Virus record (IMG/VR): IMGVR_UViG_3300023435_000009
Reading direction: 5' to 3' (one strand)
Source of the DNA: a virus
Lineage: Duplodnaviria; Caudoviricetes
DNA: 64,000 nt
In this document: piece after piece, positions 48,991 to 58,860 of the stretch
Layout of the letters: the number at the start of each line of letters is the position of its first letter
Position numbering within the stretch: position 1 is the stretch's first letter
Program-made: the position numbers and the translations under genes
Notes under the pieces: model-generated
Database searches by the model: none
What the model saw: only the letters and a program-made list of their open reading frames with translations
What the model was told of the DNA's origin: nothing

Positions 48991-49043
48991 CCCGCAGGGA
49001 CGCATACAAAGCGTCCCGAAAAGCCAGAGGCTAAGGGGGTCTC

Positions 49044-49745
49044 ATTTCACTTGACACGAAATACCGCCCGCTGGGATATGACGATGTGCTGGGACAGGAG
49101 TCCTCCATCAAGATCCTCCGACGCTTTGTGGCAACAGGGAAGGGCCGTTATCAGTCCTACTTGTTCTGTGGCCCTTACGGCTCAGGGAAGACGACACTCG
49201 GGCGGATCCTGGCACGGGCGCTGCTGTGTGAACAGCCTACTCCCGAGGGAGATCCCTGTGACAAGTGCATCTCCTGTCAATCCATTTTGGAGTCAGGAAC
49301 ATCCTTGGATTTCACCGAGGTGGATGCAGCAACCAACTCAGGGGTGGCGGAGATACACAAGGTCGTAGAGTCCGTCCTTTACGATTCCTTCTCGGGACGG
49401 CGACGGTTGTTCCTCTTTGACGAGTGTTTCACCGAGAGCACATTGTTATTAACCCCTGATGGGTTGAAGTCGATTCGAGAGTTGGTTGAATCGGAGTATT
49501 CTGGCCAAGTGTTAGCCGCTGACTTGGATGAGGGGGATCCTCAATGGGTGTCTGTGGCAAATTGGTTTGTACAGGGTAAGCGCAAAACGGTCACGTTGAC
49601 TTTTGATAATGGTGTTGAGATCACCGTTACCGAGACGCAGAAGATTGCGACCCGGAATAGGGGGTGGGTGACAGCCCAGGATTTGACTTCCGATGACGAT
49701 GTGATAGAATGTCACGAGAGCGTCAAGGGGGTGAAGCATGGGTGA
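49044..49745 (+). CDS. dnaX: DnaX (gamma/tau) N-extein fused to split-intein N-half
   Basis: SLDTKYRP, GQ, Walker A GPYGSGKTT, CDKCISC, EVDAA, LFDE|CFTEST; probable ATT start at 49044. Confidence 0.88.
   Translation: MSLDTKYRPLGYDDVLGQESSIKILRRFVATGKGRYQSYLFCGPYGSGKTTLGRILARALLCEQPTPEGDPCDKCISCQSILESGTSLDFTEVDAATNSGVAEIHKVVESVLYDSFSGRRRLFLFDECFTESTLLLTPDGLKSIRELVESEYSGQVLAADLDEGDPQWVSVANWFVQGKRKTVTLTFDNGVEITVTETQKIATRNRGWVTAQDLTSDDDVIECHESVKGVKHG
49425..49742 (+). mobile_element. Split intein N-half (106 aa)
   Basis: Cys1 block A CFTESTLLLTPDG; block B-like TVTETQKI; GWVTAQDL; ends in a stop codon. Confidence 0.85.
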
Positions 49746-50922
49746 TGATACCATTTTGTGCGCCTGCGGTTGTGGTACAGTTATCACAAGGCTTGGACTA
49801 AATGGGAAACCCCGGAAGTACAAACAGGGGCATCAGTGTTTAGGACGGAAGATTATCAAAGATGAGCGGTACTGGGGGATCAGACTTCGAAAATTGCACA
49901 CTAGAGCATCCTTATGTTTGTGCGGTTGTGGAGAGAAAGTGTTGGTGTCAATGAGATGGCTCAAAGAACAATCACAACGGGGGGACCGAAAAAAACGTTC
50001 TGTGTGGTTGCCGAAGTATAAAGAGGGGCATATGCCCCTGACTTATTGTGCCTGTGGTTGTGGGACTTTGATCCCTTCCATGGATTCGAGGAATCATAAG
50101 CGTTCTTTTGTTCCAGGTCACGCTGGGTTTTTGAAGAAAGGGATTGATGTCGTAAATTGGAAAAAACGCAAAGATGAGTGGGGTAAGGCTGCTCCTTTTT
50201 GTGCCTGTGGTTGTGGCGTGCAATTGAAACGTACTGAGAAACAGCTTAGGAGTCATATCCCAGATGCTAAGTATCTATCAGGACATGGGACTCGGAGGGG
50301 TTGTGTTCTTAAGTTGACTCAACAAGAAGAGTCCATTGTTTATGGGTGTCTCTTGGGGGACTTTTCGATCACCATTCCGAAAAAGACGGCCAGACTCGGT
50401 TTCACACATTGCATAGCGCAGAAATTGTATGCCTTACATAAAATAGAAATCTTAAAGAGACTGAGTTGGTGGTGGTGTGAGTTTGAAAGCGGGGGGTATA
50501 AGAAGGGAGGGGGCATGATTAGGGGTACCTCTGCATGTATGCCCATCTTGAATTCGGTTTGGGAAACGGTAAGGCCCTTTGGAGAGGGGAAGCAGGTGAC
50601 CTCTCAATGGCTGGACCACATCGATGAGCGTGCCCTAGCCTATTGGTATATGGATGACGGTTCCTGTGGTGTCCGTTTGGTAGATGGGAGCCCCGCTAGT
50701 TTATCGCTGCATACAGAAGGATTCACAGAGTCTGAAAACTTGTTGTTGGCAAGTTGGTTGCGCCACAAAGGGTATAGGGGGGCTAAAGTAGCCCCAACGA
50801 GAGGGTACTTTTATTTGTATCTCCCAAAATTTGCGGCTAGGAAATTTCTGGCCGATGTTTCTCCTTTTGTCCATTCCTCCATGGGATACAAGTTAGGGGC
50901 AGTGGATGGCACGACTAATTAA
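49738..50922 (+). CDS. Free-standing LAGLIDADG homing endonuclease with four CxCGCG repeats
   Basis: VYGCLLGD, LAYWYMDDG, LHTEGFT; overlaps both dnaX halves; AT-rich. Confidence 0.85.
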   Translation: MGDDTILCACGCGTVITRLGLNGKPRKYKQGHQCLGRKIIKDERYWGIRLRKLHTRASLCLCGCGEKVLVSMRWLKEQSQRGDRKKRSVWLPKYKEGHMPLTYCACGCGTLIPSMDSRNHKRSFVPGHAGFLKKGIDVVNWKKRKDEWGKAAPFCACGCGVQLKRTEKQLRSHIPDAKYLSGHGTRRGCVLKLTQQEESIVYGCLLGDFSITIPKKTARLGFTHCIAQKLYALHKIEILKRLSWWWCEFESGGYKKGGGMIRGTSACMPILNSVWETVRPFGEGKQVTSQWLDHIDERALAYWYMDDGSCGVRLVDGSPASLSLHTEGFTESENLLLASWLRHKGYRGAKVAPTRGYFYLYLPKFAARKFLADVSPFVHSSMGYKLGAVDGTTN

Positions 50923-51028
50923 AAGAGTTGTTGGTGGGGAGCAGATTGTTTTTGATGTGACTACTGAACCTTGTCATAGTTTTTTTGCCTTCAGTGGGGG
51001 GGTGGAAGCTGGGATTTTGGTTCACAAT
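50906..51028 (+). mobile_element. Split intein C-half (41 aa)
   Basis: Blocks F/G, His-Asn terminus, Ser +1. Confidence 0.85.
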
Positions 51029-52039
51029 AGTCACCAACTTTCTTCACAGGCACTTGATGCTTTGCTCAAACCCCTGGAGGAGAACTTCGAGGACACCCCG
51101 GAGAAGAAACTCGTCTGCATTTTTTGTACGACGGAACCTGAGAAGATGCGGGCCACCATTTTCAGTCGTTGTGCTCCCGCCTTCATCATCCAGCCGGTGA
51201 ATCCTGTCGAGGTTGCTGGGCGGTTGACGATGGTGTGTGACAAGGAGCAGATAGAGTACGAGCCGGAAATGCTGCTGGCTCTGGCCGAGATGACGGAGTG
51301 TCACATCAGGGATGCTTTGAAGGCTGTAGAGGGTATCTCCATGTTGGGGGGTATCACACGGGAGAACGTCATCTCCTATCTCCATCTGGACTTGAATAGT
51401 TCCTACCTGGATGTCCTTGAGGCGTTGGGCACGGACCTGGGGAAGGCTATGGAAACAGCCCATCAGATCCTTCTCCAGACTTCGCCCGCCATCTGCTACA
51501 AGAAGCTGGCCGAGACTGCGATGATGGCCTTTGCGTCCACTCTGGGAAACTCCCACATTCCGGTTTACCTGGATGTGGATCGGGTCCGAGCATTAGGGAA
51601 AAGTCAGGGGAATCAGCTTCTGGGGGTGGCCTCCCGGTTGGCCTCCCGACCGATGCGCCCCACAGAAGCGATGCTTCTCTGTGACCTTGGGGTTTTGCAC
51701 CACGGCGGCGGGGCCATTGGGAATGCTCCGGTGGTATTCATGCCCCAAGGTGCTGTCCCCAAAGAGGGGGTCGTGGTTACCCCTGAGCCAAAAACCTCTG
51801 TCCCCTCTACCCCTTCCAGGGGTACACTGGAAGCAGTTGTGATGCGGAGTGGTGAACCTGTGGTGGGGCGAGGGGCCGTCAATGATGGTACCGTACCTGA
51901 TGCATCCAAGAGGAAAGCATTCGTTACCGAAGGACTTGATGTCACTGAATTCGCTCAGATGTTGGGCCGAGCCCTACAAGACGAACTGAAAAGGGTATCC
52001 GTTGGATCAACGAGACACTCAGACGTGGGTGGCAATTGA
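50906..52039 (+). CDS. dnaX: Split-intein C-half fused to DnaX C-extein
   Basis: MARLIKR..VFDVTT..HSFFA..LVHN|SHQLS..DALLKPLEE, FCTTEPEK, TIFSRC, HIRDAL. Confidence 0.88.
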   Translation: MARLIKRVVGGEQIVFDVTTEPCHSFFAFSGGVEAGILVHNSHQLSSQALDALLKPLEENFEDTPEKKLVCIFCTTEPEKMRATIFSRCAPAFIIQPVNPVEVAGRLTMVCDKEQIEYEPEMLLALAEMTECHIRDALKAVEGISMLGGITRENVISYLHLDLNSSYLDVLEALGTDLGKAMETAHQILLQTSPAICYKKLAETAMMAFASTLGNSHIPVYLDVDRVRALGKSQGNQLLGVASRLASRPMRPTEAMLLCDLGVLHHGGGAIGNAPVVFMPQGAVPKEGVVVTPEPKTSVPSTPSRGTLEAVVMRSGEPVVGRGAVNDGTVPDASKRKAFVTEGLDVTEFAQMLGRALQDELKRVSVGSTRHSDVGGN

Positions 52040-52562
52040 ACTTTCTCACCTTGGTGAGGAGAAGGTCCAAGACGGAACTCTTGTAGGCACCCTCCGCCAA
52101 GACCTTGGTGCAGGGGATGACTTCCCTATTTTCATTCCTGCAGCATCCTATCCCAAAGGTCGTAGACGTGTGACCCTTCTCCTGATGGAGGGTTATGTTT
52201 TTGTCGCTTCGGGACTTCCCGACACCAAGTATTTCGAACTGGAGAAACGTCCTTACATTGCACTGGTGATGTCCACGGTAAGTGGGGAGCATCAGATGCG
52301 TGCCGTGACAACGATCCCGAACAGCACAGTGGAGGATCTTCGGCAACAGCTACGGCAAATGGTGTCCTCTGACATCCCTTTGGATGCACGGGTTAGAGTT
52401 ACGGATGGTTCCTACCGAAATCTAGAGGGGATTGTCCGTGGGCTGACTAGGGGATATGCCTTCGTGGAGATTCATTTGCGTTCCTTAGAGGTTGTCGCCA
52501 CAATACCCTGTGTGATGTTGGAGGCTCTCGACCCACTTGCTGAAGAGGATAAAGGTCGGTAG
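52002..52562 (+). CDS. nusG: NusG/RfaH-like transcription factor
   Basis: WVAI, LLMEGYVFV (NGN domain), KOW-like VRVTDGSYRNLEG. Confidence 0.75.
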   Translation: MDQRDTQTWVAIELSHLGEEKVQDGTLVGTLRQDLGAGDDFPIFIPAASYPKGRRRVTLLLMEGYVFVASGLPDTKYFELEKRPYIALVMSTVSGEHQMRAVTTIPNSTVEDLRQQLRQMVSSDIPLDARVRVTDGSYRNLEGIVRGLTRGYAFVEIHLRSLEVVATIPCVMLEALDPLAEEDKGR

Positions 52563-52621
52563 TATTCTTTTTGAGCTTCTCGGACTTTTTGAGCTGCACT
52601 ACAATCTGCGATGAGGTTGTG

Positions 52622-53224
52622 ATGGCTTGGTCCGGGCAATGCATTTTAGATCCCTCAGAGATCGAAGCCAGGTTTGGGGAAGATCTCGGCCTCGCTCATT
52701 TTGATCGCATCACGGAAGACACTACTGAAGAGGATCAGGCCCAGCTTGATCATGTCCGAGCCGTGATGGATCAACTCCCGCCTCGGGAGGCCGACTTTGT
52801 AGACCTCTACTACTTCAAGAAACTGAAGCAGACCGACATCGCTATGATCTTCGGGGTGAGTCAGCCCACCGTCTGTTACCGCCTTGCTCGTGCCGCTGAC
52901 CGTATCCGTTTCCTCCTCAATCTCCCCCAGGTGGAGCGGGAGGAGATGACCAAAGATCTAGCCAGCTATTTTTCGGATACCCTGGATGTGCAGATAATGG
53001 TTTTAATGTGGGAGACCACTTGTCAGAGTGAGGTGGCGAAGATGCTGGGGGTAACCCAGGGCCTCGTCCGGCACAGGTTCATGCGGACGCTGGCCAAAAT
53101 GCGGTCCCACCCTAAGTTCCTCCGGTACGTTGCCCTCTTCGATTACATCTCAGCCAACCTCAACATCCTGCGAGAGGTTCAGCGTCCTCTGTGGAACGAC
53201 AAACTGCTGCGCTGCATCCAATAG
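52622..53224 (+). CDS. Sigma70 region-4-like double-HTH protein
   Basis: QLPPREADFV.LYYF...QTDIA.IFGVSQPTV; second HTH QSEVAKMLGVTQG. Confidence 0.7.
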   Translation: MAWSGQCILDPSEIEARFGEDLGLAHFDRITEDTTEEDQAQLDHVRAVMDQLPPREADFVDLYYFKKLKQTDIAMIFGVSQPTVCYRLARAADRIRFLLNLPQVEREEMTKDLASYFSDTLDVQIMVLMWETTCQSEVAKMLGVTQGLVRHRFMRTLAKMRSHPKFLRYVALFDYISANLNILREVQRPLWNDKLLRCIQ

Positions 53225-56068: not shown

Positions 56069-57295
56069 ATGACACAGAAAGTCTTTGTGATTGACACTGA
56101 CGGGAGGCAGTTACTTCCCACTCACCCAGCACGCTCTAGGAAACTACTGCAAGCTGGTCGTGCTCAGGTACATCAAGTGGTACCCTTTACGATCCAGCTA
56201 ACCCGTGTCGTTGAGGATCCTGTTGGAGCCTTCACTGTTGGTGTTGACGACGGAGCGAAACACGTTGGCATAGCGATGGTAAACGAGCACACCAAGGAAG
56301 TAGTCTTCAGGGGTACCGTCCGGTTACGTCAGGATGTTAAGCGAAAAATGACACAACGGGCAGCGTATAGACGAACGAGGAGAAGTCGGAAGCTCCGACA
56401 TCGTCCAGCTCGATTCCTGAACCGAGGAAGGAAGGGTTTTTTGCCCCCCACTATTCGTCAGAAGAAGGACAGTATACTTCGGGTGATCAGAGATCTTGGG
56501 AAGGTTCTTCACATTACCAAGGCCGTTGTTGAAGAGGGACAGTTTGACATCAGCAGCCTAGCTGCAGGCAGGAAGTTGGTTGGTGCAGAGTTCCAACAGT
56601 CGGAATACGAGGGTCGGAACTTTCGAGCCAAGGTGCTCTGGCGGGATCGCTACAAATGCACACGTTGTGGTTTTACCGAGTGGCTCCAAGCACATCATGT
56701 CAAACCTAAAAGTGTGGGCGGTGGGAATTCTCCGAACAACGGCCTTACCTTGTGTAGAACTTGCCACAAGGAACTTCATGATGGGTTGTGGGCGTTAACT
56801 GCTAAACCCAAGCGGTTCCTTTATCCTGCCCATTTGCAAGCAGGAAAGAAGTACCTGCGGGAAGGGTTGTGTTCATGCGGGCTTGCCGTGAGCACTTGTT
56901 GTGGATGGATGACTAAGTTATGGCGTGACTTCATAGGGCTGCCCAAGGCGCACGATTTCGATGCTGTAGCGATGGTGTGCCGGAGTTACATGCCAAAGAT
57001 AGTGAAAGGGGCGTTCACTATTATCCCTCGTCGAACTAAGGTGTGGGAAGGCAATCCGACGAAGAAGTGCCATGAACGTAGAGGGTTTCGTCATTGGGAT
57101 TTGGTAAAGGCTAGTCATCGTACCCGTGGGATCGTTGTAGGGTCGGTACGGAGTTTAAAGAAGGCACGTTTAACTTTACGTACTGGATGGGACATTAATT
57201 TTCCCGTGTCTTACAGGAAAACACAGTTGCTATGGCGACCAAAAGGTCTGGTGTACATAAGTACGCTTGGGCTTCCCTGTCCAAGAGCCCTATAG
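56069..57295 (+). CDS. iscB: IscB (PLMP-RuvC-bridge helix-HNH) RNA-guided nuclease
   Basis: LLPTHPARSRKLL, VGVDDGAKHVG, RRTRRSRK, VEEGQFD, CTRC..HH..N.LTLCRTCH, HDFDA. Confidence 0.92.
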   Translation: MTQKVFVIDTDGRQLLPTHPARSRKLLQAGRAQVHQVVPFTIQLTRVVEDPVGAFTVGVDDGAKHVGIAMVNEHTKEVVFRGTVRLRQDVKRKMTQRAAYRRTRRSRKLRHRPARFLNRGRKGFLPPTIRQKKDSILRVIRDLGKVLHITKAVVEEGQFDISSLAAGRKLVGAEFQQSEYEGRNFRAKVLWRDRYKCTRCGFTEWLQAHHVKPKSVGGGNSPNNGLTLCRTCHKELHDGLWALTAKPKRFLYPAHLQAGKKYLREGLCSCGLAVSTCCGWMTKLWRDFIGLPKAHDFDAVAMVCRSYMPKIVKGAFTIIPRRTKVWEGNPTKKCHERRGFRHWDLVKASHRTRGIVVGSVRSLKKARLTLRTGWDINFPVSYRKTQLLWRPKGLVYISTLGLPCPRAL

Positions 57296-57873: not shown

Positions 57874-58860
57874 ATGAAGAAGGACAGACTGGGAACCAAG
57901 TGGGTATTCAACGTGTACCCAGGCCGAATGGGGGTCGTGTACGGTGCCAGGGTAGACGACGAGCCCATCAGAATCGCTCTCGATGATGGTGGCGTTGGTT
58001 GGCGACTTGACTACGGTGGACTGATGGCCCGGATGGGTGGTCCGTGGGAAGCTCTGACCTGTGACGTCTATGACACCCCCCAGGAAGCGGCCAAGGTGTT
58101 GGCAAGGATGCACCAGAGTGGGGCGCTTGATAGACGTCTACGCAGGGCGTCCTTGGAGAAGCAGTGGGGGCCGACAGCCGCTGTCCACAAAGAGGCCAAC
58201 TCGGGATACGACGTCCTGATGACTGTTCTTGACTTGAACTCCTCGGCATACCTGAAGATGCACTCCTCAATTGGGAAGGACGACGAGCAGTCCGCCGATC
58301 TTCTACAGGATGTGATGTCCAAGCTTTCCGATGAGTTGGAGATCTCCAACCGAGCAGAGGGTGCCCTGACCCGGATTCAGGGTGTTGTCAAGAACCATAA
58401 GCACTGGAGTCCTGACCTTCTTCGCAACAACATTTTCAAGGCTGCCAACTCCCTTGGGATACATCTCCCCAGCGGGATGTTCGCCTCCGAGGTTGTGTCC
58501 GCTGTCCATAAGTTGAAGAAGGATCTCAAGGTCAAGAACGGCGACGCTATCCCGATGGGTGTGCGTGTCAAGGTGAAGTTCCTGGGCCGACACAACCGAG
58601 AGGGCAGCCAAGCCTGTCTGGTGGCCGCCAACTGGACAAGCCAGGAGTCAGGGCGTGACTATACACTAGACCCGGTGAAGCTGCGTATCGTGTCCCTTCC
58701 CAAGTTTGTGACGGGTTTCAAGATCCCCTCCATCAGTTCGATGCAGCGACTGGAGGAACAGAAGGGGGTTTCTCTGACCCCAACTGGAAAGAGGGTCGAA
58801 CCTGACGGTTACGGCCCTGATGATTCCCCCAGTTGGATGCTGGTGCTGGGGTATGTTTAA
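57874..58860 (+). CDS. Hypothetical modular protein
   Basis: Modules separated by RRAS, KEAN, MFAS. Confidence 0.65.
   Translation: MKKDRLGTKWVFNVYPGRMGVVYGARVDDEPIRIALDDGGVGWRLDYGGLMARMGGPWEALTCDVYDTPQEAAKVLARMHQSGALDRRLRRASLEKQWGPTAAVHKEANSGYDVLMTVLDLNSSAYLKMHSSIGKDDEQSADLLQDVMSKLSDELEISNRAEGALTRIQGVVKNHKHWSPDLLRNNIFKAANSLGIHLPSGMFASEVVSAVHKLKKDLKVKNGDAIPMGVRVKVKFLGRHNREGSQACLVAANWTSQESGRDYTLDPVKLRIVSLPKFVTGFKIPSISSMQRLEEQKGVSLTPTGKRVEPDGYGPDDSPSWMLVLGYV

Follow-up and report, generated by a model that had tools for sequence, protein, structure and literature searches.

We describe a dnaX gene that lies in pieces in a 64,000-nucleotide stretch of DNA from a virus (Duplodnaviria; Caudoviricetes; IMG/VR record IMGVR_UViG_3300023435_000009); the whole stretch is referred to here as the window. 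Positions 49044 to 52039 hold three open reading frames (ORFs) on the same (+) strand (Table 1). Gene 1 encodes the N-terminal part of the clamp-loader protein DnaX (the N-extein), followed by the N-terminal half of an intein (the N-intein) and a stop codon. Gene 2 encodes a LAGLIDADG endonuclease in another frame. Gene 3 encodes the C-terminal half of the intein (the C-intein) and then the rest of DnaX (the C-extein). This layout was proposed in an initial annotation of the window; we confirmed all three ORFs at the same coordinates and reproduced the overlaps, which are of 8 nucleotides between genes 1 and 2 (ATGGGTGA) and of 17 nucleotides between genes 2 and 3. Each of the three starts is preceded, at a distance of 4-6 nucleotides, by a ribosome-binding motif of the form A(A)GGGG(G). 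The endonuclease ORF is free-standing, with its own start and ribosome-binding site, and is not fused in frame to either intein half. We consider it very likely that in this locus a huge phage carries a fractured but functional dnaX, with a split intein that acts by trans-splicing and a homing endonuclease gene between the two halves.

DnaX segments, intein halves and endonuclease

All of the elements expected of a DnaX-type clamp-loader ATPase are present, divided over the two halves. The N-extein carries the Walker A motif (GSGKT), a four-Cys zinc module and a Walker B motif that ends in LFLFDE, and the C-extein carries sensor 1 (TTEPEK), the SRC arginine-finger motif, the lid domain and sensor 2. 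With gene 3 as the query, 755 homologues were recovered, for the most part intein-free DnaX proteins of 450-480 residues encoded on phage-like contigs of up to 536 kb. Among the best 120 of the 755, 108 are intein-free and eight are split C-halves (beginning MARL..., with a C-intein of 39-44 residues that ends in HN and is followed by C/S-H-(Q/R)-L-S). Joining of the two exteins gives a DnaX of 463 amino acids, a length that falls within the range of the intein-free homologues, with the Walker B sequence DESHQLS. This exact string is found in 43 of the 108 intein-free homologues. That splicing would restore DESH was already stated in the initial annotation.

Cys1 of the N-intein directly follows the Walker B residues DE, and the sequence DE/CF (the slash marks the junction) is invariant in approximately 51 N-halves. 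The match of the N-intein to Pfam Intein_splicing is below threshold. Conservation extends to the block-F Asp and His and to the terminal Asn; the penultimate His is present in all split C-halves and is Ser in a contiguous relative (L001). In an alignment of the C-intein, the pattern MARL...VYDV..TH.F...HN is kept in ten relatives. Every intein-bearing allele has Cys or Ser at +1. At the same position, Ala (56) or Ser (52), but never Cys, is found in intein-free alleles. Such a distribution would be expected if splicing needed a nucleophile at +1.

Cys1, blocks F and G and the +1 residue have the form expected of a class 1 intein, whereas block B lacks the expected T-x-x-H. In phmmer alignments to the NrdJ-1, DnaE and RecA inteins, Gln72 falls opposite the block-B His in all three cases. 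The substitution is typical of the family: among 51 N-halves, the block-B position is Gln in approximately 46, His in three and Glu in two, and the block-B Thr is kept. The block-B His is described as the most highly conserved of all intein residues, and many inteins depend on it for the first step (PMC6333167); natural inteins that lack it make up a very small subset (PMC6333167; PMC10663303). Bulky side chains at position -1 are able to offset its loss in an engineered case (Friedel et al., in PMC6333167). By analogy, the bulky Glu at -1 in this protein could contribute to compensation.

We predicted the complex of the two intein halves, each with five extein residues. The pair scored 0.79 versus 0.00 for the best of three controls, and passed a mark that is reached by 51 of 78 solved complexes and by 2 of 108 mismatched pairs. 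Agreement between runs is at least 97% of contacts, with a predicted local distance difference test (pLDDT) value for the partner of at least 78. The model favours association of the halves, which as modelled look like a split intein, but the pass may stem from their likeness to solved split-intein structures.

Three side observations concern the N-intein and its relatives. Position 6 is Ala (CFTEDA) in three His-type split N-inteins (those with the block-B His) and in the contiguous L001 intein, and is Thr or Ser in nearly all Gln-type sequences; this difference may reflect shared ancestry or a coupled change. The N-intein matches the C-terminal ends of the profiles phrog_16259 (DNA helicase, E-value 3e-8) and phrog_13169 (DNA polymerase, E-value 2e-5), which suggests that these profiles were built from the N-halves of fractured helicase and polymerase genes. 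A weak C-intein-like tblastn match at 58704-58784 (E-value 0.03) was considered as a second intein in the window and dismissed, as it sits in an unrelated ORF.

The C-terminal region of the endonuclease (approximately 200 amino acids) is a monomeric, two-motif LAGLIDADG domain with an alpha-beta-beta-alpha-beta-beta-alpha fold that occurs twice. An AlphaFold2 model built with nine homologues has pLDDT values above 90 over residues ~190-388. Foldseek matched the model to I-WcaI (E-value 2e-13) and I-SceI (E-value 1e-11), with template modelling (TM) scores normalized by target of 0.76-0.79, and intein-embedded enzymes of the PI-SceI type scored far lower. Thus, the endonuclease is of the free-standing or intron type of monomeric two-motif LAGLIDADG enzymes. 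Residues 1-190 (49738-50310) contain four C-x-C-G-C-G repeats, each followed 18-35 residues on by G-H. Asp208, Asp306/307 and the four N-terminal Cys repeats are invariant in nine homologues at approximately 50% identity, and the gene is therefore under purifying selection. To judge from their sequence, the repeats are probably CCCH zinc knuckles that form an accessory DNA-binding domain. Pfam DUF6527 matches the CxCGCG motif only, and an Atlas search with the N-terminal domain gave sub-threshold leads only, to viral zinc-finger or HNH/NUMOD3-associated modules. Remote matches carry similar Cys repeats fused to HNH or NUMOD3 nucleases.

The reading frame of gene 1 opens after a TAA at 49032, and the first canonical start in frame is the GTG at 49086. 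The conserved N-terminus (SLDTKYRP...) begins upstream of this GTG, at the ATT at 49044, where there is no ATG, GTG or TTG. This ATT is probably the initiator, albeit a weak codon, because the M/L-S-L-D-T-K start of the relatives (ATG or TTG) aligns at that codon. Public gene calls begin at the GTG and so drop 14 conserved residues. The promoter-like site upstream of the endonuclease gene is not above chance (2 sites per 6 kb versus 3.0 +/- 1.5 expected).

Table 1. Coordinates of features at the dnaX locus (positions in the window).
Feature	Position	Strand	Remarks
Ribosome-binding motif AAGGGGG	49033..49039	+	4 nucleotides upstream of the ATT start of gene 1
Gene 1 (N-extein, N-intein, stop)	49044-49745	+	
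N-extein (DnaX residues 1-127)	49044..49424	+	Pfam DNA_pol3_delta2, E-value 2e-12; PHROG clamp loader, E-value 4e-23
N-intein (106 amino acids, begins CFTEST)	49425-49742, then stop TGA 49743-49745	+	Cys1 at 49425-49427
Block B, T-E-T-Q	49629-49640	+	Gln72 replaces the canonical His
Sigma-70-like promoter match, TTGACT-16-TAGAAT with TG	49683..49710	+	Weak; 28 nucleotides before the endonuclease start
Ribosome-binding motif AAGGGGG	49725-49731	+	6 nucleotides before the endonuclease start
Gene 2 (free-standing homing-endonuclease gene, 394 amino acids, other frame)	49738-50922	+	Pfam LAGLIDADG_2 (PF03161), E-value 9e-20
LAGLIDADG motif 1, LLGDFS	50344-50373	+	Asp208
LAGLIDADG motif 2, YMDDGS	50638-50664	+	Asp306/307
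Ribosome-binding motif AGGGG	50895-50899	+	6 nucleotides before the gene 3 start
Gene 3 (C-intein, C-extein)	50906-52039	+	
C-intein (41 amino acids, MARLI...)	50906-51028	+	Block F VFDV..CHSFF; block G ILVHN
C-extein (Ser+1, HQLS..., 336 amino acids and stop)	51029..52039	+	Pfam DNA_pol3_delta2, E-value 1e-6; DNAX_ATPase_lid

Distribution and history of the intein-bearing alleles

Split N-halves of 216-257 residues form approximately 50 clusters in a search with gene 1, and a search with gene 2 recovered approximately 22 clusters of the same endonuclease (44-52% identity). In prokaryote genomes, we identified only remote LAGLIDADG matches to the endonuclease (21-33% identity), none of them in cyanobacterial dnaX. 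The identical three-gene layout occurs in L006, L008/L009 and L013, on the contigs of P0031 and P0053, and in the IMG/VR phages L028 and L029/L032 (372 and 497 kb for L029/L032). Overall, approximately 20 diverged relatives, at roughly 50% identity, show this layout. Split halves that lack the endonuclease gene, here termed bare split inteins, are found at L002/L003, L004/L005, L011 and L012. Contiguous mini-inteins occupy the same dnaX site in L001/L031 (485 kb) and L030 (619 kb). That of L001 (2992-4878) is of the His type, has 167 amino acids and carries SN instead of HN in block G, and that of L030 (3501-5465) is of the Gln type and has 154 amino acids. The Gln type is thus found in fractured, bare-split and contiguous forms. 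Both mini-inteins would have to splice in cis for DnaX to work. An origin of the contiguous forms by in-frame loss of the endonuclease found no support: when the linkers of L001 and L030 were compared with the endonuclease family by blastx, no match was significant (E-values above 0.2 throughout).

Relatives were found on IMG/VR contigs as long as 619 kb, the neighbouring genes are phage-like, and the sole DNA match in the phage database is a 485-kb uncultured phage (the same genome as L001/L031). Most of the longer relative loci examined share a gene order of Toprim primase, phage metallopeptidase, dnaX, a NusG/KOW-like gene and a sigma-70 region-4 gene. The last two of these genes are encoded just 3' of dnaX in the window (52002-53224, + strand); replication and transcription modules are interleaved here. 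Other nuclease genes were noted as well. The window encodes a 408-amino-acid protein (56069-57295, + strand) with Pfam RRXRR (E-value 5e-51) and HNH (E-value 1e-9) matches and an IscB-like architecture, and L008 has a second mobile nuclease gene (GIY-YIG and NUMOD3; 1297-2130) immediately 5' of its fractured dnaX.

The intein-bearing alleles are scattered among intein-free ones. On a tree of 121 C-extein rows, the intein label requires at least seven changes, four of which are forced by strongly supported branches, and a single clade of all intein-bearing alleles is rejected (approximately unbiased test, p-AU 0.0002). One split allele, P0010, falls within a group of intein-free alleles that are nearly identical. 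As read from the tree, in which gain and loss are indistinguishable, this patchy distribution fits homing, precise loss by recombination with intein-free alleles, or both.

When eight fractured loci are compared in pairs, the N-extein is 56-67% identical, the N-intein 41-56% and the endonuclease 43-51%. A correlation between endonuclease and extein divergence (r approximately 0.7) was set aside, because one close pair drives the value.

The N-intein tree groups three His-type rows (SH-aLRT, the Shimodaira-Hasegawa-like approximate likelihood ratio test, 87, which is not strong). Monophyly of the His type is not rejected by the N-extein data (p-AU 0.084) and is marginally rejected by the C-extein data (p-AU 0.027). 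These sequence comparisons are suggestive of horizontal transfer of the His-type intein.

Endonuclease decay can be followed at the bare split loci. All three of those examined keep 3' remnants of the endonuclease gene in the spacer between the halves (L002, E-value 1e-11; L004, E-value 1e-4; L011, E-value 4e-26), and the L011 remnant includes the second LAGLIDADG motif. Several N-half tails bear fused endonuclease fragments. Because the spacers retain 3' remnants, we infer that the bare split inteins descend from fractured genes via deletion of the 5' part of the endonuclease gene. It is plausible that the C-half takes its ribosome-binding site from this remaining 3' end.

Proposed mechanism and alternative explanations

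We predict from the gene layout that the three genes would be co-transcribed with their neighbours (Toprim primase, metallopeptidase, NusG-like and sigma-like genes) and translated separately, with the short stop/start overlaps probably coupling translation. The 106-amino-acid N-intein and the 41-amino-acid C-intein would then form one HINT domain that carries out class 1 protein trans-splicing. The predicted first step is an N-S acyl shift at Glu(-1)-Cys1, which would be activated without the block-B His (Gln instead). The acyl group would next move to the hydroxyl of Ser+1, the terminal Asn would cyclise, and an O-N shift would yield the 463-amino-acid clamp-loader ATPase with an intact Walker B DESH. 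The endonuclease, to judge from its family and distribution, most likely cuts, at the conserved Walker-B coding site, the dnaX of co-infecting relatives that lack the intein. Repair by recombination would copy the whole cassette (N-intein, endonuclease gene and C-intein) into the cut allele. In the long term, the endonuclease gene would decay through 5' deletions, leaving a bare split intein.

Several points weigh against this interpretation. The case for splicing is drawn from conserved residues and a predicted complex, and the block-B His is replaced by Gln, so a splicing defect is conceivable from the sequence. Gene 1 apparently initiates at a weak codon, ATT. With regard to mobility, the N-extein, the N-intein and the endonuclease have diverged together and no recent endonuclease sweep is visible; current homing is not established, because the three parts co-diverge. 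The patchiness could stem partly from precise losses rather than gains. Finally, the endonuclease target is a candidate Walker-B coding site, proposed from DNA that is conserved around the insertion point in 46 distinct intein-free alleles.

Splicing could in addition be conditional (on redox state, stoichiometry or timing) and gate phage replication post-translationally, which is compatible with trans-splicing and which we regard as unlikely. Reviews on regulatory inteins provide a general precedent only (PMC10663303). The weak ATT start could make the level of the N-half limiting, and the C-half may depend for its translation on coupling to the endonuclease gene. However, the intein has no conserved extra Cys pair or sensor feature, and the Cys that precedes the block-F His is not conserved in the relatives. 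Further, 108 of the best 120 matches have an intein-free dnaX; because this is true of most related phages, the intein is not needed for regulation. We found no evidence to support the post-translational replication switch that the initial annotation had raised.

A rather improbable alternative to trans-splicing is that the intein halves have lost the ability to splice and serve only to dock, holding the DnaX pieces together non-covalently. The block-B change from His to Gln, at this locus and in approximately 46 of 51 family members, would be compatible with this, and there is a precedent in the fragmented NrdA of phage Aeh1, in which interaction domains reportedly assemble the pieces non-covalently after fragmentation by a mobile element (PMC3045599). 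Docking would require neither Cys1, nor the terminal Asn, nor a Cys or Ser at +1, yet no intein-bearing allele has lost any of these, and Ala at +1 is freely used where there is no intein. A 147-amino-acid domain placed straight after the Walker B Glu would probably obstruct the ATPase site. The contiguous Gln-type mini-intein of L030 would require removal for a working DnaX, and natural inteins that splice without the block-B His do exist (the Tko CDC21-1 group, as cited in PMC6333167).

It is very improbable that insertion of the endonuclease gene killed dnaX, with the halves now decaying as pseudogenes and a host or other clamp loader in use. The interrupted gene and the non-canonical start codon of gene 1 would fit such a history. 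On the other hand, every ATPase motif is kept in the two halves, the homologous halves are conserved across approximately 50-65% identity in dozens of phages, the intein catalytic residues are conserved, and the split form outlasts the decay of the endonuclease.

The last alternative is an assembly artefact, in which the real gene is one continuous intein with an in-frame endonuclease and two false frameshifts. The stretch is present in at least 24 salt-lake metagenome runs; no RNA run is listed among those that contain it. Over positions 49000-52100, Logan contigs from four of the salt-lake runs show zero substitutions, indels or joints. Two of the four have word depths of 55x and 71x; these possibly represent the source sample and are hence not independent. 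In the other two, which are not flagged as possible sources, contigs span both gene junctions. With these data, the frameshift scenario, already raised in the initial annotation, is effectively refuted: the endonuclease ORF comes with a start, a ribosome-binding site and a 190-amino-acid N-terminal domain of its own, the enzyme is of the free-standing I-SceI type and not of the intein-embedded type, and the three-ORF layout recurs in independent samples and assemblers at only approximately 50% identity.

Returning to trans-splicing, we consider it likely, for the family as a whole, that these split and contiguous DnaX inteins (at least 50 clusters) splice efficiently with the block-B Gln, by means of an undescribed activation of the scissile bond, that they include mutually orthogonal Ser+1 and Cys+1 pairs, and that they record the full life cycle of a fractured gene, from invasion through decay of the endonuclease to 3' remnants and on to a bare split intein. 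If splicing is true, a family in which approximately 90% of members are of the Gln type is a natural experiment on first-step catalysis without the block-B His. Natural split inteins are scarce and are valuable tools, and this family provides dozens of diverged N/C pairs (approximately 100 + 40 amino acids) with Ser or Cys at +1.

Comparison with known inteins and homing endonucleases

Inteins of DnaX (PolIII gamma/tau) have been reported from Cyanobacteria only; there are 15, all contiguous, at one site right after Walker B (Novikova 2016, PMC4760082). Those inteins (insertion point a) share the host protein and, by description, the site with the intein described here (DE/C...N/SH, with slashes at the splice junctions), but they are contiguous, cis-splicing and cellular. 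The Ssp (Synechocystis) DnaX intein reportedly contains an antisense, non-canonical LAGLIDADG ORF (bioRxiv 10.1101/2025.01.02.630785). Similarity to the Spl DnaX mini-intein (PDB 7cfv) was detected with an E-value of 6e-6 for a contiguous relative and of 0.15 for the N-intein of this locus. Specific shared descent with Spl DnaX is not established, because these scores are no better than those to RecA and NrdJ-1 inteins.

The orthologues of Tko CDC21-1 are likewise natural inteins without the block-B His, and, as cited in PMC6333167, they reportedly splice via a compensatory mechanism. These orthologues are archaeal and contiguous, and they differ from the Gln-type DnaX inteins in host protein and replacement residue. 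The endonuclease resembles I-SceI and I-WcaI in its fold and in its two LAGLIDADG motifs, each with a conserved Asp. It differs from them in sequence (approximately 20% identity), in the extra N-terminal domain of approximately 190 amino acids with four CxCGCG...GH repeats, and in its location, which is inside a split intein and not in a group I intron. In the Pseudomonas jumbo phage MIJ3, a PolB gene is fractured by a split intein and an HNH endonuclease gene (PMC6892783); the host gene and the endonuclease family differ from those described here, and block B of the MIJ3 intein is the canonical TEDH.

The closest parallels in architecture are the fractured genes of Dassa 2009 (PMC2677866), which comprise gp41 (gp41-1 and gp41-8), NrdA, NrdJ (NrdJ-1), IMPDH (IMPDH-1), DnaE, DNA ligase, gp17 and an unknown protein. 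The initial annotation had named phage genes such as gp41, IMPDH and NrdJ for this architecture, in agreement with that study. In both cases, a conserved phage gene for replication or nucleotide metabolism is broken at an intein site, and a free-standing gene for an endonuclease lies between the halves. The split is at the canonical endonuclease insertion point and gives halves of approximately 100 and 40 amino acids. Alleles without the endonuclease gene occur in both sets (the gp41-7 locus there; L002, L004 and L011 here). In contrast, dnaX is absent from the eight gene types of Dassa 2009 (PMC2677866). Half of the loci in that study have Vsr-like endonucleases and the word LAGLIDADG is absent from it, whereas the endonuclease here is an I-SceI-like LAGLIDADG enzyme with Cys-rich repeats. 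The block-B Gln, and graded endonuclease remnants that document decay, also set the dnaX family apart.

Our literature searches, with subscription journals outside their coverage, returned only engineered Ssp DnaX derivatives and no natural split DnaX intein. The clamp loader joins a short list of genes that are naturally fractured by split inteins, in a form that is widespread and long-lived in huge phages, and the graded endonuclease remnants are direct sequence evidence for the route from a fractured gene to a bare split intein. Relative to the fractured genes described previously, the architecture is known, whereas dnaX as its host gene and the type of the endonuclease are new, and block B is non-canonical throughout the family.

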